52,329 bases of DNA from Escherichia phage Mangalitsa. The stretch lies in the sequence record NC_048799.1. One strand, given 5' to 3'. The translations under genes were made by a program, and so were the position numbers. The stretch's first letter is position 1. Every line of letters starts with the position of its first letter. Below, piece by piece: positions 1 to 52,329 of the stretch. The notes beneath the pieces were generated by a model. It had not been told where the DNA came from. It worked only from the letters and a program-made list of their open reading frames with translations, and did no database searches.

Positions 1-131
1 TTAAAATACGGTCCCTACCTCAACTTTTTCCTAGAGCCTATCGGCTTTCAATCAACACCAAGTTAGGCGCTTCGCTTATGAGTCAAGGTCAAAGGCAATC
101 AGAGCACGCTGTTGTAATGTGCTAGTCTCAC

Positions 132-150
132 CATTAGTTGGTTGTGATTA
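132..150 (+). promoter_or_regulatory. phage-RNAP-type promoter, variant class (CATTAGTTGGTTGTGATTA), upstream of the RNAP gene
   Basis: Member of a 10-copy motif family with core CATTAGT; closest match is the copy at 26372 upstream of terminase. Confidence 0.5.
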
Positions 151-210
151 TGAATAGGCTACGCAAGTCTAATCCGTTTCAGTTAAATCATAATCAATTG
201 GAGACTTATC

Positions 211-2325
211 ATGACTAACGAAGAATACCGTGCACTGGCTGCTGATGGCGCTCGCTTGAAAGAAGAAGGCCAAGGTTGGAAAGACGTGCTCGATACGATG
301 GACCGTTGCAACCAGATGGTAGATGAAATCACCTCCGCTACACAATCCGAAACTAAAACCGAAACTAAATTGGAGACTCGCAAAATGACAACTATCTCAA
401 CTCAAACTATCAAATCCGTTGTCCCTGCTATCACTGCCCTGGTATACCGTGCTAAAGAGAAACAGAATTACATGCAGCCTCAGACCTGTGCTATTGCTGC
501 TCTTGCAATCTTTAAGATGATGACCTCATTCACTCGTGATGATGTTGTTCCTGCAATGTCAATGGTTGAACTGGCTTCTGCTTCTATTGCTGATGCCAAC
601 CGTTACAACAACGACCTGAAAGCAATGCACTATGTTGACCCGGCTATCAACCTCATTGGTCTGGCTAAACACTTTGGCTTCATCACCATGAACGAAGACA
701 AGTCGTTCCAACAAACTGATGCATGGGTTGAGCTGGTTACTACCAAAGATACCTCAGTTCCATTTACTGAGCGTGTTACCACTGAATCTCGTCGCAAGCC
801 TTTCGTTAAAGGTGGCAAAGTTAAGCCATCCAAGACTCTGAAAGCTGCAATCGAATTCCTGCAAGATACTGAGTACCATGTGGAGACTGAGATGGTTCGC
901 GTCATCCAGTCTATGATTGAACAACGTACCTACGGTGGTTTGCAGGTGCCAGAAGCAATCCAGACTGAACTCCATGTTTGGAACAATGCTGTAGCAATGA
1001 TGACTCAGGACACTCTGTTCTCTGACTACTTTGCTGATAACCGTGGTCGTCTGTATCATGTAGCATGTGCTGGTCCTAACCCACAATCATCTGACTTTGC
1101 TCGTTGCTTGTATTCTCACAATGTTGAGAACATCGTTAAGAAGTTTAACGAAGATGGTTCTACTACCATTGCATACAACATGTTCATGGCAGAGCTGGAA
1201 GATATTTCCGGTGGTGAATGGTGTACTGCTAAGCGTTTAACTTATGTTGCTCAGAATCCAGCTGGTTCACTTGCTCGCATGATGAACATGGACAAATCTG
1301 AACGTCCTTCTAAGCCATTCACTTATGTTCGATTGGCTCTGGATTGGTTCAAGTTTGAGACTACAGGTGAGTGTGATTCTCGAGTAGGCTTTGGCTTAGA
1401 TGCTAAATGTTCTGGTACTCAATATCTGGCATTCATTGCTGGTAACATGGAGATGGCTCGTGCAACAGGTCTGGTTGATTCTGAGACTAAAGCATCTGAC
1501 CCATACCAGTTGAGTCTCCGTGAACTGTTGAAGCTACTGGATAAGTCTTCAATGAAACCATCTCCTGAAATTATGGATGAATTCTTGAATCCGAAAGCTG
1601 GTCGTAAGTTTATCAAAACTCCATACATGGCTATCCAATATGGTGGTGGTAAAGCTGCGTTAACTGGTTCTTCTGACTTTATCTCCTACATGACTGCATC
1701 TCTACAGATTCCAGTTGAGAAAGCAGAAGCATTTGCTGAACTGTGTGTGGAAGCAATCCATAACGCATTGGGTGCTAAGATTAACATGTTCATTGAGAAA
1801 GCTGCTGAAGCTGCATATAACCGTTGTGTTGAACTCAACAAAGAGTACATCACCTATAAGCACACTGATGGCCAAGTTGTAATGAAGCCTTGCTTCCCAT
1901 CTCGTGAAATCTGTGATGCATTCAGCATTCGTGTTGATTCTCAAACTCGTGTTATCTTTGGTCAGATTCAGGAAGAGAAACCTTGGACCATTCGTGAGTC
2001 CAATCCAACTAAGGAAGAATTCAAACGTACCTTCGTTGTTAACTACATTCAAGGTATTGATGCTCTGGTTGCTCGTACTGTTGCAGTTAAGGCTAAAGAA
2101 GCTGGTCTTCGTGGCTTTACTCCAATCCATGATTGTTTCCGTTGCTGTTTGGCTGATGCTCCACGCATGATGGAAGTTATTCGTGCAGCATATGTTGAAA
2201 TCTTTGTAACCAACAATCAATTCGAGAATCTGTCTAAGCAACTTGGTGGCATCAAGATGTATCACGAGAACATCGTAACCGAAGAGCTTCTGATGAGCGA
2301 ACACGCTTACTACTTCTGTCAATAA
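211..2325 (+). CDS. single-subunit DNA-dependent RNA polymerase, T7-like but compact (704 aa)
   Basis: Palm motifs readable in the translation: motif A DAKCSGTQYLA, motif B KFIKTPYMAIQYGGG, motif C IHDCF; RBS GGAGA before the ATG. Confidence 0.85.
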   Translation: MTNEEYRALAADGARLKEEGQGWKDVLDTMDRCNQMVDEITSATQSETKTETKLETRKMTTISTQTIKSVVPAITALVYRAKEKQNYMQPQTCAIAALAIFKMMTSFTRDDVVPAMSMVELASASIADANRYNNDLKAMHYVDPAINLIGLAKHFGFITMNEDKSFQQTDAWVELVTTKDTSVPFTERVTTESRRKPFVKGGKVKPSKTLKAAIEFLQDTEYHVETEMVRVIQSMIEQRTYGGLQVPEAIQTELHVWNNAVAMMTQDTLFSDYFADNRGRLYHVACAGPNPQSSDFARCLYSHNVENIVKKFNEDGSTTIAYNMFMAELEDISGGEWCTAKRLTYVAQNPAGSLARMMNMDKSERPSKPFTYVRLALDWFKFETTGECDSRVGFGLDAKCSGTQYLAFIAGNMEMARATGLVDSETKASDPYQLSLRELLKLLDKSSMKPSPEIMDEFLNPKAGRKFIKTPYMAIQYGGGKAALTGSSDFISYMTASLQIPVEKAEAFAELCVEAIHNALGAKINMFIEKAAEAAYNRCVELNKEYITYKHTDGQVVMKPCFPSREICDAFSIRVDSQTRVIFGQIQEEKPWTIRESNPTKEEFKRTFVVNYIQGIDALVARTVAVKAKEAGLRGFTPIHDCFRCCLADAPRMMEVIRAAYVEIFVTNNQFENLSKQLGGIKMYHENIVTEELLMSEHAYYFCQ

Positions 2326-2367
2326 CATTAATTGGTCAAGGATGACCACAACTACTTGGAGACTACA

Positions 2368-2568
2368 ATGAATACCATGCAAATCAAACAAATCGAAAAC
2401 TGTTTCAATCCTCACCACACTTGCAGCATGACTGATTTATCTCGTCCTACAGTGGAGGAGACTAAAGACTTCTTAGAATTGTTGTCAGAATATAAACAAG
2501 AATCGCATGTATTATTGCATGCATATTTACACAACTCTGGATACTTTGATACAGAGATACCGTTCTGA
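2368..2568 (+). CDS. hypothetical early protein (66 aa) ending in DTEIPF
   Basis: ORF-track frame 2332..2568 begins at TTG; the internal ATG at 2368 has a GGAGA RBS. C-terminus ...SGYFDTEIPF. Confidence 0.45.
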   Translation: MNTMQIKQIENCFNPHHTCSMTDLSRPTVEETKDFLELLSEYKQESHVLLHAYLHNSGYFDTEIPF

Positions 2569-2573
2569 TACTC

Positions 2574-2598
2574 GGGAGCTTCGGCTCCCTTTTCTTGT
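2574..2598 (+). terminator. intrinsic terminator, GGGAGC-UUCG-GCUCCC hairpin plus U-tract
   Basis: Perfect 6-bp GC stem with UUCG tetraloop followed by TTTTCTTGTTT, directly after the RNAP operon. Confidence 0.6.
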
Positions 2599-2620
2599 TT
2601 CAACTAATCTAAAGATGTAG

Positions 2621-2640
2621 CATTAGTTGCATGTGAATAA
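2621..2640 (+). promoter_or_regulatory. phage-RNAP-type promoter CATTAGTTGCATGTGAATAA
   Basis: Identical 20-mer recurs at 3749; family consensus CATTAGTTGR-ATGTGAA. Confidence 0.6.
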
Positions 2641-2660
2641 CAAACAATTTGGAGCATATC

Positions 2661-2825
2661 ATGTTCACAGTACATTACATAAACAAGAACTTATCCGAAG
2701 GTGTTTACAAGTGCGACACACTCAAAGAGGCAAGAGCGTTCGCCAGAAGCTTGAGAGAAGTAATATCTGTTGAAATCACAGATGGCGATAAAGAGTACGA
2801 TGTAGTTAAGCCTGAACTCCACTGA
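2661..2825 (+). CDS. hypothetical small protein (54 aa)
   Basis: ATG 21 nt after the promoter with GGAGCA RBS; below the 60-aa cutoff of the ORF track. Confidence 0.4.
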   Translation: MFTVHYINKNLSEGVYKCDTLKEARAFARSLREVISVEITDGDKEYDVVKPELH

Positions 2826-2838
2826 TTCCCAATATTCA

Positions 2839-2865
2839 GACAATATTGCTGCATGTAATATTGTC
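2839..2865. repeat. inverted repeat GACAATATT-N9-AATATTGTC
   Basis: Perfect 9-bp arms; belongs to the AATATTG..CAATATT family also at 3289, 3538 and the right end. Confidence 0.6.
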
Positions 2866-2876
2866 TCGATATTCGA

Positions 2877-2896
2877 CATTAGTTGGATGTGAAGTA
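2877..2896 (+). promoter_or_regulatory. phage-RNAP-type promoter CATTAGTTGGATGTGAAGTA
   Basis: Motif family member; the prefix GATATTCGACATTAGTTGG is shared with the copy at 10780. Confidence 0.55.
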
Positions 2897-3288
2897 ACAG
2901 AATACGGAGAAGTATTACTCACGTTGTTCGTGGGTTTCCGCATGTCATGTTGAAATCATTCTAGAAACATTTCAGCATGTCAACTAAACATACAGTGTTG
3001 TAATGATGTGGCAATCATTGAACTCCCTGTCTTTGGCCAGACAAAGTTCCAACAACCATGTGTGAAGTAGGATTATTATTCGAAACTGTTCTTCAACTAA
3101 GGCATGTTCACTTGTTTCAATATTGCTTCATCTCCTATTATCAAGGCCCACCCACAAGCCGGGAGATAACTTTGGCAAGACTGGAACTTTTGGACATGCT
3201 TCTTTCTTTCAATCAGAATTCGAAAGAAGAGAAGAGTCGGAGCAAAGTGGCATTACGAATCCCGTAGCCCGCCCCGATTTTGAGCAAC

Positions 3289-3306
3289 AAATATTGTGAC
3301 AATATT
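3289..3306. repeat. inverted-repeat 18-mer AATATTGTGACAATATTG, copy 1
   Basis: Exact duplicate at 3538..3555; imperfect palindrome. Confidence 0.65.
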
Positions 3307-3537
3307 GTCGCAGTATGGCATGTAAATATTGCTACAAATTGGCATGTTAGAATGTGGCAGAATTGTTAGAGGACTAATCACCTCGAAGATACAATTGTCT
3401 ACCAATCCGGCATGTTAATTTTGTAACAGTATTTGTGCCAAATTCGCATGTATTAGCTGTATCAGTATTAACCCAATATTCTTGCAACCCGCATGAATAC
3501 TGGCTTCCAGCCAAGCGAAGGCTTTATCATCGCATGT

Positions 3538-3555
3538 AATATTGTGACAATATTG
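3538..3555. repeat. inverted-repeat 18-mer AATATTGTGACAATATTG, copy 2
   Basis: Exact duplicate of 3289..3306. Confidence 0.65.
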
Positions 3556-3748
3556 GGATAAAACCCTTTATTTAATTAGTTTTATTATGCTGTACATGGT
3601 CGGTTTTCCGTACCTGCTGCGCCACTTCTTGATGTGCCAAATACATTCCAAGATAGGAGCAAACCTGTAATTAATGATGCATGTTTAGTTGTGACAAAAT
3701 TCGTCTATTTGGCAGATGAATTAGTTGCAATTAAGCATGTCCATTTAT

Positions 3749-3768
3749 CATTAGTTGCATGTGAATAA
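3749..3768 (+). promoter_or_regulatory. phage-RNAP-type promoter CATTAGTTGCATGTGAATAA, preceded by a partial copy at 3721..3734
   Basis: Identical to the 2621 copy; tandem partial motif TTAGTTGCAATTAA lies 28 nt upstream. Confidence 0.6.
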
Positions 3769-3869
3769 GACCAAATCTCTGTAAATTCTGCTGAAATTGT
3801 GTGGCAGATTTTAGAGAGATTATGTCTCCAAGCTAATCATTGTAGTTTTCGGCACTTCATGTGTCACAT

Positions 3870-3933
3870 ACTCCCTACAACTTTAAGGTGGATTGAGGTA
3901 AGACAAGACCTCCACAATCGTTCTGTAGGGAGT
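3870..3933 (+). other. structured 5' leader hairpin upstream of gene 3959
   Basis: 10-bp perfect long-range stem ACTCCCTACA / TGTAGGGAGT enclosing an inner GAGGT/ACCTC hairpin; sits between promoter 3749 and the RBS at 3948. Confidence 0.4.
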
Positions 3934-3958
3934 TTTCTTTTAACTTTGGAGAATAAAA

Positions 3959-6870: not shown

Positions 6871-6938
6871 CAAAGCTATTCCGTGGTTAGCAATGTCGCT
6901 GAAACTTAAACTGTAATTAACTTAAAGAGAATTTAATC

Positions 6939-7313
6939 ATGGCACAATTTAACGATTTAAACACTGGTATTCTGGGTTCCAATGGCTTCAAGAAAGCTGA
7001 AAATCATCCAGACGTTCGTGGTCGCATTAACGTAGAAGGTATTTGGTATTGGGTGTCTGGCTGGAATAAGAAAGCTGGCAACACCGAATTTACCTCATTG
7101 GCACTCACCATCATGACTCAGGAACAGGTTGATGAAATGATGCGTAAGCGTGAAGAGAAGGCTAAAGCCAAAGCTCAACCTCAAGCTGCCGCTCAACAGC
7201 AACAGCCACGCCAGCAGCCAACTCAGCAACAGCAAGCTCCTGCTCAACAACAACAGCAGAGCAATTATAACCCGAACGAGCCGAAAGACTTCGACGACGA
7301 CATTCCATTCTAA
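6939..7313 (+). CDS. mini SSB-like protein: short N-domain, Gln/Pro-rich linker and a C-terminal tip identical to E. coli SSB (DFDDDIPF)
   Basis: C-terminus ...NPNEPKDFDDDIPF; low-complexity linker QPQAAAQQQQPRQQPTQQQQAPAQQQQQ; N-terminal 70 aa is too short for a canonical OB-fold SSB. Confidence 0.55.
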   Translation: MAQFNDLNTGILGSNGFKKAENHPDVRGRINVEGIWYWVSGWNKKAGNTEFTSLALTIMTQEQVDEMMRKREEKAKAKAQPQAAAQQQQPRQQPTQQQQAPAQQQQQSNYNPNEPKDFDDDIPF

Positions 7314-7326
7314 TTGGAGATGCCCT

Positions 7327-7446
7327 ATGAAAATTTTATGTTTTATAGGGCTACATAATTGGGAGATTTCTCATACAAACGATTATGTAACCTTTTGGGT
7401 GTGTAAGCACTGCTCAGAAATGCGTGAGGAGTATCATGGACAATAA
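7327..7446 (+). CDS. hypothetical small Cys/His-containing peptide (39 aa)
   Basis: GGAGA RBS; MKILCFIGLHNWEISHTNDYVTFWVCKHC...; below ORF-track cutoff. Confidence 0.3.
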   Translation: MKILCFIGLHNWEISHTNDYVTFWVCKHCSEMREEYHGQ

Positions 7447-7912
7447 GTTTGTCGAAATACCTGCCAACTTGGTTAAAGCTGGCGACGTATTAGTATATAG
7501 CAACAGAGAATATTTAATTGTAAAAGTTCTGCGATTTAGTTCTGTAGTTCAACTCCAATATTCCGGAGGATACTACAATTTTGAGTTTGGGCGCATAGTC
7601 AAAGTGTTGGACAGGCCACCAGCTTCAGGAACCTCAACAATTGAATTCCCAAACCAAATAAATCCAGTATTCCTTCCTGTGGAGAATAACATGGAAACAT
7701 TAAATATTCAAAATGCAATCGAAGCACAACGCATTCTTCTGCAAAAGTTGGAGCAAATGTTGGAATTAACCCAGCTTACACCAACAAAAGATGGCAAGAT
7801 TGCAATTGGCAACTGTAACATTCGCGTGGACAAGGCATCAATCACTAAAGCCGTACGAGATGAAATGAAAGCTGCCGCAAGCAAATCCGCAGAGCTTATC
7901 AAGAAGCTGTAA
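7436..7912 (+). CDS. hypothetical protein
   Basis: ATG 7436 with GAGGAG RBS (ORF-track frame begins earlier at 7424). Confidence 0.5.
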   Translation: MDNKFVEIPANLVKAGDVLVYSNREYLIVKVLRFSSVVQLQYSGGYYNFEFGRIVKVLDRPPASGTSTIEFPNQINPVFLPVENNMETLNIQNAIEAQRILLQKLEQMLELTQLTPTKDGKIAIGNCNIRVDKASITKAVRDEMKAAASKSAELIKKL

Positions 7913-7964
7913 TTAACAGAGGTCATTCCACTTCGAGTGGCCTCGATTAATTATTGGAGGTTAC

Positions 7965-8096
7965 ATGTGGGATATTTATCTTGAAGGTGTTGACGAGCCA
8001 ATTTCAACACTTAACACACAATTTGTTACGGTTGGGTGTGCAATCCTCTACAAAGGTAGGTTGTACACCGTATCTAAAATCGTTCAGAGGTTTTAA
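7965..8096 (+). CDS. hypothetical small protein (43 aa)
   Basis: GGAGG RBS 4 nt upstream; stop overlaps the ATG of the next gene. Confidence 0.3.
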   Translation: MWDIYLEGVDEPISTLNTQFVTVGCAILYKGRLYTVSKIVQRF

Positions 8097-8437
8097 TGAA
8101 AACATTTTACATCTTCTTAGTTATTCTTTTCGGCGTCTTAACCTTTAAATCTGAAGCCAAACAGGTTAAATTTGGTTGCGACGGCTTTGATGTAACTTTA
8201 GACCAGTTTGAAAACAGACCAATCGTAGCATCAATCACATTTGAACCAGGTACTTGGGTTGAAGTTCCAGAAAGCGGAGATTCAAACACCATTCACCTAT
8301 TCAATATAGTCAATAGCAAACTTGCAGTTATGGGTATGGACCATCATGGCTCACTGTTTCTGCAAATTTATCGCGATTATGATTTCTATCAGGCCCACCA
8401 GCCTCAACATAGTTTAAGATGTTTGGAGAGAAAATGA
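8096..8437 (+). CDS. hypothetical exported protein (N-terminal signal peptide)
   Basis: MKTFYIFLVILFGVLTFKSEA-KQ: hydrophobic leader with an A-X-A-like cleavage context. Confidence 0.5.
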   Translation: MKTFYIFLVILFGVLTFKSEAKQVKFGCDGFDVTLDQFENRPIVASITFEPGTWVEVPESGDSNTIHLFNIVNSKLAVMGMDHHGSLFLQIYRDYDFYQAHQPQHSLRCLERK

Positions 8438-8661
8438 CGTCAGCCGAATTTACCATTGATGGAGTACCATACTTACTAGAATCCAATTGCGAATACCGCC
8501 ATTGGTCAGTAATTCACGACCGAGTTGTAAAATACTTGGAACGTGTAGGGAGAGCAACCGCAGTATTGTTTGAAGCAACCGTTGAAGGTAGTACATCAAT
8601 CAATAAAGAGTGTGTTGCTTTTAAATTAACCATCAACCCACAAGGTAATAACTTCCGATGA
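8434..8661 (+). CDS. hypothetical protein
   Basis: ATG 8434 with GGAGAG RBS, overlaps upstream stop. Confidence 0.45.
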   Translation: MTSAEFTIDGVPYLLESNCEYRHWSVIHDRVVKYLERVGRATAVLFEATVEGSTSINKECVAFKLTINPQGNNFR

Positions 8662-8924
8662 AAGTTGAAGAACTTGCAGACCGCTTGGCGGCAGCAAAGA
8701 AAGAGCTTGCAACACATGCTACACGTGTTAATTCTCTTAAAGCACTCCCTTCTGGTGAGGAAATCTCACTATTCACAGACAATATTTGGTTTTCAATGAA
8801 TCGTGCACAATTTATTGAGATTCAGGACCAACGTTTGGCTGAACTGGAGCAGAAAGTTGCCAGTTATGAGGGTTTACTGCAAACTTTACAAGCAACACTG
8901 GACCAGGAGCTGGGAAATGTCTAA
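8658..8924 (+). CDS. hypothetical coiled-coil protein
   Basis: ORF; Leu/Glu/Ala-rich heptads. Confidence 0.5.
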   Translation: MKVEELADRLAAAKKELATHATRVNSLKALPSGEEISLFTDNIWFSMNRAQFIEIQDQRLAELEQKVASYEGLLQTLQATLDQELGNV

Positions 8925-9315
8925 TGTTAAGTTGGGCCAACGCTCACTTGACCGACTCAAGGGTGTAAATCCCTCATTAGTGGCAGTTTTCAAGCGTGCA
9001 TGTGAAACAATGCCGTTTGATGTAACTGTTCTTGAAGGATTGCGCACTTATGAGCGCCAACAAGAGCTTTTAAAGCAGGGTGCAACCAAAGTTTCAGTTA
9101 GCCGACACATGTCAGGCAATGCTTTAGACATTGCACCATATCCAATTGACTGGAATGACCTCGAACGATTCCAAATTGTAGCTGAACACATGTTCAAAGC
9201 CGCAGAAGAGCTTGGAATTGTCATTCGTTGGGGCGGAACATGGGAGCGTTCATTCACTAAGCCAGTGAAATGGGCTAAATTCCTAGACGCACCACACTTC
9301 GAACTTCCAGCATAA
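8917..9315 (+). CDS. peptidase M15 family, T5 Lys-like L-alanyl-D-glutamate endopeptidase (endolysin candidate)
   Basis: SRHMSGNALDIAPYPIDWNDLERF, IRWGGTW and PHFEL match the zinc-peptidase signature of T5-type endolysins as recalled; ATG 8917 overlaps upstream stop. Confidence 0.7.
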   Translation: MSNVKLGQRSLDRLKGVNPSLVAVFKRACETMPFDVTVLEGLRTYERQQELLKQGATKVSVSRHMSGNALDIAPYPIDWNDLERFQIVAEHMFKAAEELGIVIRWGGTWERSFTKPVKWAKFLDAPHFELPA

Positions 9316-9335
9316 CTTCATCAATGGAGCATCCG

Positions 9336-9614
9336 ATGAATTACGAAGATATCCCAAGAGAGTTGAATGCACTAGAGTCAAGAGCCATCCGTGCAGAGAA
9401 TATTCTCCACCAGCACCTATCAATTAACGTAGGTGATGAAAAGAAGATGCAGTACACTATGGAACTTGACGATGTAGTCTACACTGTCAGTTACAACGAG
9501 AAGGCTGCTATCCTCAGTGCACTTATCAAAGGTGGAAATGAGCGAATCAATCAACTTAAGATTCTGGACACAGAATTGAGAGGCACTTGGGAGAAACTAA
9601 ATGCAAAACGATAA
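9336..9614 (+). CDS. hypothetical protein
   Basis: ATG 9336 with GGAGC RBS (alternative ATG at 9324). Confidence 0.45.
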   Translation: MNYEDIPRELNALESRAIRAENILHQHLSINVGDEKKMQYTMELDDVVYTVSYNEKAAILSALIKGGNERINQLKILDTELRGTWEKLNAKR

Positions 9615-10149
9615 CATTACTCAAGCAGTAGAACAGCTAAAGTCCTGGCGTAGAGATGAAACCTTATTGGTTCGTTTCTACACAGGCGAAACTAATTCTG
9701 AATTTGTAGATGCGTGGATTGATGGCCTGTCTTGGCGTCACTATGATTTCAACATGCGGGACTATTTGCATGAAGAATATGGCATTGAATATCCAGAAGA
9801 CGGTACATATGACGTAATTGAATCAAACGAAGAAGATGTTACCGAAGTTTGCTTTGCCAATGGGCTATTCAGCATTCGTAAATATGATAAGTTCAATGGG
9901 CTGCTTGTTGACACCGATTTGGATGTAATTCTTGCAGCATTCCGCAGTGGTGAGATTGATATTTTCACTGTGGATGATTTGAACGACATGTTCATCACAC
10001 GTTGCGACTCAATTACAGAATATTTGAAGCAAAGTGAGGCACTGGATATTCCAGACCGCCTTGCACCATATATTGATTGGGATGCAATAACCAGAGATTA
10101 TGGAAGTGACTACATTTTCTCTGAGGGAATATTATTCTTAAATGCGTGA
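9601..10149 (+). CDS. acidic protein, candidate ArdA-like DNA-mimic anti-restriction protein
   Basis: Strongly acidic 182 aa; segments FYTGETNSEFVDAWIDGL and YIDWDAITRDYGSDYIFSEGILF resemble ArdA N- and C-terminal signatures as I recall them; not search-verified. Confidence 0.4.
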   Translation: MQNDNITQAVEQLKSWRRDETLLVRFYTGETNSEFVDAWIDGLSWRHYDFNMRDYLHEEYGIEYPEDGTYDVIESNEEDVTEVCFANGLFSIRKYDKFNGLLVDTDLDVILAAFRSGEIDIFTVDDLNDMFITRCDSITEYLKQSEALDIPDRLAPYIDWDAITRDYGSDYIFSEGILFLNA

Positions 10150-10381
10150 TTTAAATATTGCTGAACTTGAGGCTGGATTGATTGTTCACCACCAGCCTCG
10201 AAACACTTTCTATCGTATTCTTGGGCCTACAAAGATTAAAACTCACTCCGGAGATTGGGTAGATGGGTTTGCTTACCAGGAAGTGAAGAAATACGGGAAT
10301 CATACTTTCTTGAGTATTGATTCTTCTACTATCTACACACGACCGAAAGAGCTATTTGACTCAGATTGGAAAACACTATAG
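10142..10381 (+). CDS. hypothetical protein
   Basis: ORF overlapping upstream stop. Confidence 0.45.
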   Translation: MRDLNIAELEAGLIVHHQPRNTFYRILGPTKIKTHSGDWVDGFAYQEVKKYGNHTFLSIDSSTIYTRPKELFDSDWKTL

Positions 10382-10591
10382 TTCCAGGCGGTTTCTTCGA
10401 AGTGCCAAGCGGGTTTGTTGCTCGCATTGGCCTTCGGCATTCTTCTGGGGCATTAGTGGGATTTGATTCTGACCTCTTAGGGAAGAAAGGCATTATACAC
10501 TTATCGCCAAATAGGTGTCAAGCACTTTCTTCATTTATTTTAATTTATTCTTATTATTCTTTTTGTTTGGAATATTGGAATAATTCTTAAA

Positions 10592-10610
10592 CATTAGTTG
10601 GAATTGAAAT
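10592..10610 (+). promoter_or_regulatory. phage-RNAP-type promoter CATTAGTTGGAATTGAAAT
   Basis: Motif family member, ending 1 nt before the ATG at 10609. Confidence 0.5.
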
Positions 10611-10785
10611 GATTAAAGTCCTGGAAAAAGATAATGTAACCTTCACACGCCAATGCCAGTTGTGTGCCTCTGTTGTGTCTTATGAATTCTCTGACTTAAA
10701 GATGCGCACAGGAAAGAATGACCGAGGATACTTCGCATACAGATTTATTCCTTGTCCTGTTTGTAAGAAAGATATTCGACATTAG
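10609..10785 (+). CDS. hypothetical zinc-ribbon protein (58 aa)
   Basis: CQLC ... CPVC pairs; stop codon lies inside the next promoter motif; below ORF-track cutoff. Confidence 0.45.
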   Translation: MIKVLEKDNVTFTRQCQLCASVVSYEFSDLKMRTGKNDRGYFAYRFIPCPVCKKDIRH

Positions 10786-10799
10786 TTGGAATTGGAGAA
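10780..10799 (+). promoter_or_regulatory. phage-RNAP-type promoter CATTAGTTGGAATTGGAGAA
   Basis: Motif family member; transcription would enter the GC-rich 10800..11434 leader. Confidence 0.5.
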
Positions 10800-11434
10800 A
10801 CAACATCAGATAATAACTTTGTAACTCGGTAGACCGTTGCGGCCGCATCGTGAGAGAATGTTCGACTCATTCTGCAAAGTTATTTTCGATGGAATGTTTC
10901 CATCACATACATTTATCTTTTAACATAGGCCAAAGGGCCGGAATACTTCTTCGCAGAAAAGCTATTCACTTGTTATAGGCGATGTATTGGGATGAATTGG
11001 AACTAAATAAGCAAGCTGTTAGGGCTGAATAATTAGAGGGTAGTGCCTCATGCTTATGTTAGTCATTCGAAAATAGGTTTGTGCCACAAGCTGCTGGTGC
11101 TCTGAGGAAGTCGGACAAACAGGGCTTAGAGTGGCATAATCCGCACAAAACCTCGCCACCAGCTATGCCAAAGCAGGTGGATTGGGTGAATGTATTGGGA
11201 AGGGTTGCAAAGCCTCTGTGACACGCCTGAGCCGCAAGGCGACGACACTCATGTGATTAGCGTATCGCACCCCTAACGGGAGTAACCCTTCACCAATGCA
11301 GTTATCCAGAATTGACACAAACGGTAGGCAGCGGCCCGATTTTCGGCCTTCCTGCGCTGCCCTGTGGCCTGTTTCCTGGGCCAAAAGATGAGAAGAGAAG
11401 TCACAAACACTGAATCGAAAATTGGAGAGTTCCT

Positions 11435-11749
11435 ATGATTCGTAAGCATTCTGCCAAAGTTTTGACATTGAGAAATGTCCTCATGCCATTAACAGGAAAA
11501 GAGGAAGAAACAATCCACTTCGTCCTGATTGGTGGACGTTGGTACTATAATGGGACAAACGCCTTCGAAGTTACCAAGTCCCTCAAAGACGGGTTCTGGA
11601 AGAACAATATTAAAGAAGTTCTTTCGGTTAGTGCAAACTACACCCTCGGAGAAGTTAAAAGATTCTTCTACCATGGCCCAAACAAGTCCATGCAAATTGC
11701 AATGCGCGAGTGGACAACAAACCAACCAATTTACGGAGTACCATTTTAA
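11435..11749 (+). CDS. hypothetical protein ending in YGVPF
   Basis: GGAGAG RBS; C-terminal hydrophobic-Pro-Phe. Confidence 0.5.
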   Translation: MIRKHSAKVLTLRNVLMPLTGKEEETIHFVLIGGRWYYNGTNAFEVTKSLKDGFWKNNIKEVLSVSANYTLGEVKRFFYHGPNKSMQIAMREWTTNQPIYGVPF

Positions 11750-12057
11750 TGGCTCGCAAAACATTGAAGCAAAAACTTCGAAAACAGATTCGTGAAATCA
11801 AATCTGCTGCCGACCAGGAACATGAGTTGGCTGGCATCACAATTAACTTTGAACTCCAGGCAATGCAAGCTGTTGCTTTAGGTCATGGCCTTATGACCAC
11901 ACTCATTCATGCCAAGAATGTGTTGGGAGTAAACAACGAAGATTACCAAACCATCGAGAAAGTGGCGCAAGAGCGTATTTCGCAGTGCTTGGTGAAATTA
12001 GTTGATATGGGAATTCCTGCTGAAGAAGCAAATCACCGAATCTTACAAGGCCATTAA
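11749..12057 (+). CDS. hypothetical protein
   Basis: ATG overlaps upstream TAA (TAATG); ORF-track frame begins at 11710. Confidence 0.5.
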   Translation: MARKTLKQKLRKQIREIKSAADQEHELAGITINFELQAMQAVALGHGLMTTLIHAKNVLGVNNEDYQTIEKVAQERISQCLVKLVDMGIPAEEANHRILQGH

Positions 12058-51880: not shown

Positions 51881-51997
51881 TTGGTTACGGTGAAGGCTGA
51901 CGTTTGTCAGTTAATATGTGAGAAGAGATTCGATGCGTTAGCGTCGTTTCTCTTTGAGCTAGAATAAAACAAGTAAATTAAATATTTATTTATTCCC

Positions 51998-52183: not shown

Positions 52184-52204
52184 CAATATTGCTACAGAAT
52201 TAAT

Positions 52205-52260
52205 GAGACTAGAATTGTTACGATATTGGAGACTCGAATTTGTTCGATATTAACGAGACT
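52205..52260. repeat. three GAGACT-containing direct repeats with about 25-bp period
   Basis: GAGACT at 52205, 52229 and 52255 in similar contexts, followed by TGTGACAATATT at 52268. Confidence 0.4.
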
Positions 52261-52329
52261 CAATCTGTGACAATATTATAATTTTATTTTTGGGCCAGCG
52301 GGGAGGGGAAGCCCAACGTCCTATCGGAC

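Follow-up and report, generated by a model that had tools for sequence, protein, structure and literature searches.

In phage T7 the RNA polymerase (RNAP) gene lies at the end of an early operon that is transcribed by the host. The RNAPII of phage N4 is composed of gp15 (269 amino acids, aa) and gp16 (404 aa), together 673 aa, and like the enzyme studied here it has a truncated N-terminal domain and thumb. The mitochondrial RNAPs (mtRNAPs; yeast Rpo41 and human POLRMT) are 900–1200 aa long, carry large N-terminal extensions and need Mtf1 or TFB2M/TFAM. A “podovirus-like RNA polymerase” has been a hallmark of certain Chaseviridae myoviruses since 2008, and the profile of this family by ICTV, the international virus taxonomy committee, states that promoters “have not yet been identified”. 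Our literature search found no paper with a biochemical characterisation of this Chaseviridae RNAP. We here analyzed the RNAP gene of one such myovirus, Escherichia phage Mangalitsa, at positions 211..2325 (+ strand) of record NC_048799.1, whose whole length of 52,329 nucleotides is referred to as the window. The genome paper reported 52,329 bp with a direct terminal repeat (DTR) of 3,234 bp determined by PhageTerm, and the RNAP gene was published and annotated there. The closure primers given in that paper recur letter for letter, in reverse complement, at 215–236 and 51920–51942 of the window. Unlike the gene of T7, it begins 210 bp from the end of the genome and has a phage-type motif upstream.

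We consider it highly probable that the gene encodes a T7-family DNA-dependent single-subunit RNA polymerase (ssRNAP) of the Cleopatravirinae type, and that the account given below best explains its size, promoter use, extension and site in the terminal repeat. The open reading frame (ORF) starts with ATG, includes its stop within the above coordinates and codes for 704 aa (79.3 kDa). Its product matched Pfam RNA_pol (PF00940) over residues 384–679 with an E value of 1.5e-18 (67 bits, cutoff 22), and PHROG 414 “RNA polymerase” with an E value of 5.5e-97. By megablast, the region belonged to Carltongylesvirus (Chaseviridae, Cleopatravirinae), whose phages phiEcoM-GJ1 (hereafter GJ1), ST32, Bp10 and SKA49 were matched along with others; in each of them an “RNA polymerase” is annotated at the equivalent place. 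The protein is co-linear over the full length with GJ1 gp01 and with the PHROG 414 profile, which places it among the Chaseviridae RNAPs, and it is 92% identical to GJ1 gp01 over a 646-aa core (646 columns aligned, template modelling score 0.92). Mangalitsa RNAP is a typical member of a large, described and annotated family, and in this sense it is already known. It would serve as the phage's own T7-family ssRNAP, an enzyme type that every myovirus of the Cleopatravirinae (Chaseviridae) has.

The catalytic residues of DX2GR and of motifs A, B and C align to those of T7 RNAP and are invariant in 73 homologs (Table 1), and the conserved C-terminal YYFCQ is present. Judged by this alignment, the catalytic machinery is complete. 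A preliminary description of the locus had placed motif A near residue 395 rather than about 537, which proved correct, with D397 standing for D537 of T7 (a shift of 140). The structural comparison with the T7 and N4 enzymes that it had proposed was made with an AlphaFold2 model built on the 73 homologs (predicted local distance difference test, pLDDT, 89.6; predicted template modelling score 0.82). Foldseek against the PDB returned T7 RNAP as the top match (E 1e-19). The figures of the structure comparison, which carry no label, were 29.3 for yeast mtRNAP, 26.2 for T7 RNAP (515 residues aligned), 23.8 for human mtRNAP, 20.5 for N4 mini-vRNAP, and 17.1 and 7.9 for N4 RNAPII gp16 and gp15, respectively. 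In the model, the RNAP has a right-hand Pol-A-type fold resembling the solved ssRNAPs, and the fold of palm, fingers and thumb is T7/mitochondrial-like.

Table 1. Features at and around the RNAP gene of phage Mangalitsa, with positions in the window
Feature	Position	Strand	Basis or remark
Direct terminal repeat at the left end, present once in the window	1..3234		Published PhageTerm length; right boundary inferred
Promoter-like motif CATTAGTTGGTTGTGAT upstream of RNAP gene, core intact, 2 mismatches to ATTAGTTGnATGTGAA	132..148	+	Pattern match
Shine-Dalgarno GGAG (200–203) and ATG 211, start of 704-aa form	200..213	+	Same in 8 of 8 insertion phages except a 1-nt spacer indel
174-nt lineage-specific insertion giving 58-aa N-terminal extension	211..384	+	Missing from nearly every homolog, GJ1, ST32, 4HA13 and Myduc included
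Retained ancestral ribosome-binding site (GGAG 372–375) and ATG 385, start of 646-aa core	372..387	+	Invariant in 8 insertion-bearing phages
Conserved core	385..2325	+	646 aa, 72.7 kDa
Reduced N-terminal domain, residues 59–210 (152 aa; about 316 in T7)	385..840	+	No RPOL_N match
Short beta-hairpin KHFGFITMNEDKSFQQTDAW, aligned to T7 intercalating hairpin	667..726	+	hhalign
Shortened thumb, residues 211–275 (T7 317–420)	841..1035	+	Alignment
DX2GR motif, D276-N-R-G-R280 (T7 D421–R425)	1030..1059	+	D276, R278 and R280 invariant in 73 homologs
Motif A GFGLDAKCSGTQ, catalytic D397 (T7 D537)	1387..1422	+	Alignment
Motif B / O-helix, K469, Y477, G478 (T7 K631, Y639, G640)	1603..1647	+	Alignment
Specificity-loop region, four predicted strands (564–595)	1867..2010	+	hhalign gap pattern and model
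Motif C, H640-D641 (T7 H811-D812)	2116..2145	+	Alignment
Terminator-like hairpin and T-run, after small ORF 2368–2568	2574..2599	+	Sequence
Perfectly matching promoter-like motif, 24 nt ahead of ORF 2661–2825	2621..2637	+	Pattern match
Promoter-like motif, perfect match, facing non-coding 2894–3958	2877..2893	+	Equivalent of GJ1 “putative phage promoter 1”
Top sigma70-like hexamers TTAACG-18-TATTAT, overlapping TATAAT	52250..52282	+	Just outside terminal repeat

The protein had been described as about 180 aa shorter than T7 RNAP, and the difference is 179 aa. With hhalign, we aligned the family profile to a profile of 26 T7-group enzymes, and residues 146–678 corresponded to T7 214–849 (probability 99%, E 8e-18). 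Taking DX2GR and motifs A, B and C as anchors, the shortfall was split into 68 aa before T7 residue 214, 38 aa in T7 214–316, 39 aa in the thumb (T7 317–420), -5 aa from DX2GR to motif A (here the window protein exceeds that of T7), 31 aa from motif A to motif C, mainly at T7 ~586–617, and 8 aa after motif C. The earlier placement of the missing residues in the N-terminal promoter-binding and clamp region holds for the larger part of them (106 of the 179 aa, about 60%, in a domain without RPOL_N), but the remainder comes from the thumb and fingers. Nor is 704 aa the homologous size: 58 of these residues belong to an orphan extension that is confined to one lineage and shares no homology with any RNAP. 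With the extension left out, the homologous shortfall is 237 aa, and the conserved protein has 646 aa.

Pfam RPOL_N (PF14700) matched neither the 704-aa form nor the 646-aa form nor GJ1 RNAP, with the T7 control at an E value of 1e-34. Of the T7-type N-terminal domain only the C-terminal third (T7 214–316) aligns significantly. The first ~90 core residues are mapped onto T7 at the sequence level by a weak, suggestive alignment (probability 7%), which puts window residues 64–214 on T7 71–301 with the region of the AT-rich loop shortened. By alignment, the equivalent of roughly the first 70 residues of T7 is gone from the domain, and so is an internal block, which the weak alignment alone places around T7 150–205. 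The small size reflects a halved N-terminal domain, a short thumb and the loss of a ~30-aa insertion in the fingers. The region of the T7 intercalating hairpin, STGMVSLHRQNAGVVGQDSETIELA, aligns to HFGFITMNE---------DKSFQQTDA, with about 9 tip residues fewer in the window; the hairpin itself is present, with strands 158–160 and 165–168 in the model. Window residues 553–600 correspond to T7 about 731–775 with about 14 extra residues; according to alignment and model, the specificity-loop beta-hairpin in the fingers is kept and enlarged. In T7, the specificity loop reads most of the promoter.

The enzyme had also been called unusually compact, which does not apply within its own family. Among 5.8 billion proteins searched, a single cluster had 704 aa and nearly all others had 630–650 aa, and homologs at 60–97% identity were all of 630–650 aa except the 704-aa cluster. 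When 1.84 billion cluster representatives were searched with a profile, 120 clusters matched at E ≤ 1e-30, and the 39 clusters covering the full profile had a median length of 693 aa (range 609–901). The classic T7-/phiKMV-type enzymes (median 807 aa) align from profile position ~150, after about 265 residues of their own. Moreover, more than 100 homolog clusters share the length and N-terminus of the RNAP, and BFVD also lists other ssRNAPs of 599–673 aa. Compactness is real against T7 and ordinary, indeed clade-wide, within its own kind, where 630–650 aa is the norm of the family and enzymes of ~610–760 aa make up a broad clade.

We then considered which promoters the polymerase may use. The motif pattern ATTAGTTGnATGTGAA was derived from GJ1's annotated putative phage promoters, and when up to 2 mismatches are allowed it occurs 8 times in the window where 0.29 occurrences are expected, each time on the + strand. 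Motifs followed by + strand gene blocks lie at 2621, 2877, 3749, 6851, 10592, 10780, 12765 and 40891, and a variant lies at 132. That the gene is preceded by a phage-type promoter, as had been claimed, stands insofar as the variant retains the 9-bp core CATTAGTTG and its position is kept in three other genera, as seen in 4HA13 (core at 123) and Myduc (core at 173), but it has two mismatches, both downstream of the core. GJ1, 4HA13 and Myduc carry the core at corresponding positions, namely upstream of RNAP, just after RNAP and before the first gene of the unique region; the copy in GJ1 that corresponds to the 2621 motif lies at 2640–2648, after its RNAP gene and just before gp02. The 2621 motif is not among the two putative phage promoters annotated in GJ1. 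Across genera the consensus reads T.TT..ACATTAGTTGnATGTGAA..AA. A terminator has been annotated after the RNAP gene of SA91KD. The earlier suggestion of a promoter unrelated to that of T7 agrees with the candidate motif, which has no resemblance to the T7 promoter; the short N-terminal domain, however, does not on its own point to a different promoter, and the specificity loop is kept and enlarged.

The enzyme would read a promoter of ~20 bp, aCATTAGTTGnATGTGAA, mainly through the specificity loop. It would transcribe the + strand blocks that follow the eight motifs, and the variant at 132 would give positive feedback on the RNAP gene. As a tentative proposal, the 646-aa core may be a near-minimal autonomous promoter-specific ssRNAP that reads aCATTAGTTGnATGTGAA almost entirely via the enlarged loop, with a stripped and perhaps winged-helix-like N-terminal domain, plus, in phages of the Mangalitsa type, a new acidic 58-aa orphan module that would give 79- and 73-kDa isoforms from tandem identical ribosome-binding sites and tune activity or autoregulation from the 132 variant.

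The polymerase might instead be non-autonomous, which we hold to be possible but doubtful: the trimmed N-terminal domain and stub hairpin would be unable to melt or select promoters alone and would need a phage or host cofactor, e.g. one among the numerous function-unknown small early proteins, as in N4 RNAPII or the mitochondrial RNAPs. The nearest candidates for such a cofactor would be the small ORFs 2368–2568 and 2661–2825. The conserved motif of ~20 bp and the enlarged specificity loop are traits of autonomous T7-like enzymes, whereas the promoters of N4 RNAPII are minimal and AT-rich. N4 gp15 had no match to Mangalitsa RNAP, gp16 was weakly similar to it (E 2e-7), T7 RNAP being the closer sequence match, and tblastn of the N4 factors against the window gave no match for gp1 and a best E value of 7.6 for gp2. 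An architecture like that of N4 RNAPII was rejected on these results.

Rather improbable is the alternative that the CATTAGTTG motif is some other regulatory element, be it bound by another phage protein, used in RNA processing or an atypical promoter of the host. The ICTV view of the promoters as not yet identified leaves room for it, the variant at 132 shares bases with TGtGATTAT, a weak sequence of extended -10 type, and the motifs are gathered in the first 13 kb with one copy in the late region, a distribution that tells against their being phage promoters. On the other hand, about 20 bp are conserved across four genera, and the motifs are strand-specific, intergenic, placed after terminators and 20–60 nt ahead of start codons. 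The same motifs were also proposed earlier by other authors as phage promoters. Finally, a motif stands directly after the RNAP gene, as do the T7 phage promoters phi1.1A and phi1.1B, to which the Mangalitsa motifs at 2621 and 2877 can be compared. Promoters read by the phage polymerase are the better explanation of these motifs.

How the polymerase is first expressed depends on its place in the genome. Starting 210 bp in from the left end, the gene falls inside a repeat of ~3.2 kb and is therefore present in two copies in virion DNA, one of which is in the window. The repeat also includes a pair of small ORFs and extends into a non-coding region. Position 1 of the window aligns with position 1 of 4HA13, for which PhageTerm gives a DTR of 1–3120; for Myduc, which shares its laboratory of origin with Mangalitsa, the DTR is 1–3202 and includes RNAP at 215–2149, the 55.6-kb record of JL1 carries two RNAP genes, and the terminal repeat of PYps23T was shown experimentally. 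A first gene inside a ~3-kb DTR of a 52–56-kb myovirus genome agrees with the Chaseviridae arrangement. Its rank as first gene, stated in the preliminary description, is partly a convention of the record, whose authors re-opened the genome, and is also physically true.

On the + strand of 1–210, no sigma70 promoter was found at standard stringency, and relaxed settings gave a weak extended -10-like site no better than in shuffled sequence. The top sigma70-like hexamers at 52250–52282 correspond to a GJ1 site annotated as a putative host promoter. The count of such hexamers is not above shuffle expectation. The top hexamers lie just outside the repeat and are therefore linked in the virion to the right-hand RNAP copy alone, about 260 bp upstream of the gene in a concatemer or in the right-end copy. 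Circularisation or concatemer formation would link them to both copies. First expression by the host RNAP would most likely start from the sigma70-like sites outside the repeat, either on the right-end copy or once the DNA is circular or concatemeric. The contrast drawn earlier with the early operon of T7 is thus right in that the gene is first and has a phage-type motif, and needs qualifying in view of these host-type hexamers. Because the gene sits in the terminal repeat, a question of bootstrapping arises: the left copy has the phage-type motif alone in its 210 bp upstream, and the host-type promoters are linked to the right copy.

Positions 52199–52282, just upstream of the repeat boundary, contain three tandem units of the form TTAATGAGACT / TTGGAGACT / TTAACGAGACT followed by (A/C)AAT(T/C)TGT.. 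and GATATT, and are reminiscent of the A1–A3 promoter cluster of T7. GJ1 has three similar units, the last of which is annotated as a sigma70 promoter. Two palindromes of one design are also present, GTCCTATCGGAC at 52318–52329, ending at the terminus junction, and AGCCTATCGGCT at 35–46. The latter does not vary between Mangalitsa, GJ1, 4HA13 and Myduc, and both are candidate elements for terminase or for recognition of the ends. The small ORFs 2368–2568 (66 aa, PHROG 20790) and 2661–2825 (54 aa, PHROG 32102) share the repeat with RNAP, so they too are present in two copies per virion, and both match function-unknown PHROGs exclusively. After the two promoter-like motifs follows a stretch of about 1.1 kb (2894–3958) without a convincing ORF, which crosses the inferred boundary at 3234, is rich in short repeats (GCATGT, AATATTG/CAATATT) and is conserved in GJ1. 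By position, it is similar to the primary replication origin of T7 after gene 1, where promoters are followed by a non-coding region. An Rfam scan of the whole window found no family at threshold.

The 58-aa N-terminal extension distinguishes Mangalitsa RNAP from most of its relatives. In alignment, GJ1, 4HA13 and Myduc are without window 211–384 and their ATG equals the window ATG 385, where the conserved N-terminus MTTI(S/T)TQTIKSVVP begins; GJ1 and ST32 start at this equivalent, preceded by TGGAGACttacaaATG. The 174-nt segment occurs in about 9 sequenced phages, e.g. Bp10, SKA49, JL1, 2KOFFS and TH23/26/28/33/37, and is flanked on both sides by the ribosome-binding sequence TTGGAGACT. The insertion lies between the ribosome-binding site and the ancestral ATG. 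The databases disagree on the start codon because of this lineage-specific insertion, with annotated lengths of 704 aa (Bp10), 648 (GJ1), 646 (ST32) and 617 (SA91KD). TH53 (MT446419.1) is about 90% identical to Mangalitsa, lacks the insertion and is not the same phage.

In 8 phages, the extension has no indel and no stop, and its 20 variable sites are distributed 4/1/15 over the three codon positions (P = 1.7e-4), a pattern like that of the adjacent core (6/0/35). There was no such codon-position bias in the upstream leader (100–210) among the phages compared. The extension is acidic (pI, isoelectric point, 4.7) and is modelled as a two-helix hairpin with a disordered T/E/K-rich linker to the core, at a pLDDT of about 70 that falls below 50 at residues 45–60. 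Apart from these same RNAP ORFs, no homolog of it turned up among 50,697 phage records or 5.8 billion proteins, and there was no match in Pfam or PHROG. From these patterns, residues 1–58 are a recent orphan extension that is translated and evolves as coding sequence. Since the ancestral ribosome-binding site and ATG 385 are intact, co-production of the 646-aa isoform is possible, and both the 79-kDa and the 73-kDa isoforms may be made.

That the 646-aa protein from ATG 385 is made alone, with 211–384 an untranslated or irrelevant leader that is open by chance, we regard as quite unlikely. Nearly all homologs, including GJ1 and ST32, begin at the equivalent of ATG 385, whose ribosome-binding site is intact, and in the model the segment folds at lower confidence and is joined to the core by a disordered linker. 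Against this weigh the 15 of 20 variable sites at third codon positions, the freedom from indels and stops, the lack of a comparable bias in the region upstream, and the segment's own GGAG and ATG at optimal spacing. Translation of the extension is the better account of the segment. As for a truncated or mis-assembled gene, or an upstream exon or start beyond the window, which the preliminary description had named as what would overturn it, the chance is negligible and the idea was rejected: nothing beyond the size difference from T7 speaks for it, an in-frame TAA at 184–186 shuts the reading frame, position 1 is the physical terminus, the many homolog clusters agree with it in length and at the N-terminus, neither a catalytic motif nor the conserved C-terminus is lacking, and the model is confident.

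Where Mangalitsa has the extension, after the conserved leader and ahead of the start of RNAP, 4HA13 carries a separate, unrelated ORF of 55 aa (194–361). The site therefore tolerates insertions and appears to be an insertion hot spot. Homology of the extension to this ORF was rejected, as the two show no similarity.

RNAP homologs were also found outside phage records. A Hafnia alvei chromosome (NJFP02000002.1, stretch 6881–11947) encodes a 648-aa homolog, 52% identical, in the gene order integrase - holin - endolysin - RNAP - small ORFs - ArdA, and the RNAP-bearing element is also present as a ~52-kb contig. It appears to be a temperate relative, in integrated form, of a family that has been called strictly lytic. 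Further RNAP homologs lie on Mb-size Pseudomonas contigs.

As a discovery the gene matters little, being annotated in a published genome. The compact clade, with about 120 clusters at 50% identity, is rather a candidate ground for biochemistry on compact ssRNAPs. An orthogonal polymerase of 73 kDa that reads a defined promoter of 20 bp would be useful as a tool, and would amount to a natural experiment on how much of the promoter-binding domain of T7 is dispensable.

Among the known systems, the mitochondrial RNAPs show marginal sequence similarity to Mangalitsa RNAP. N4 RNAPII is a heterodimer, whereas Mangalitsa RNAP is a single uninterrupted ORF, and the minimal AT-rich promoters of the former differ from the long and specific motif associated with the latter. 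T7 RNAP has the RPOL_N signature, a longer hairpin, a thumb larger by 39 aa and the fingers insertion at about T7 586–617, while its specificity loop is 14 aa shorter than that of Mangalitsa. The closest are GJ1 gp01 and the other Cleopatravirinae RNAPs, whose genes occupy the same left-end site in the terminal repeat and are flanked by the same promoter-like motifs; compared with GJ1 gp01, Mangalitsa RNAP has the 58-aa N-terminal extension in addition.

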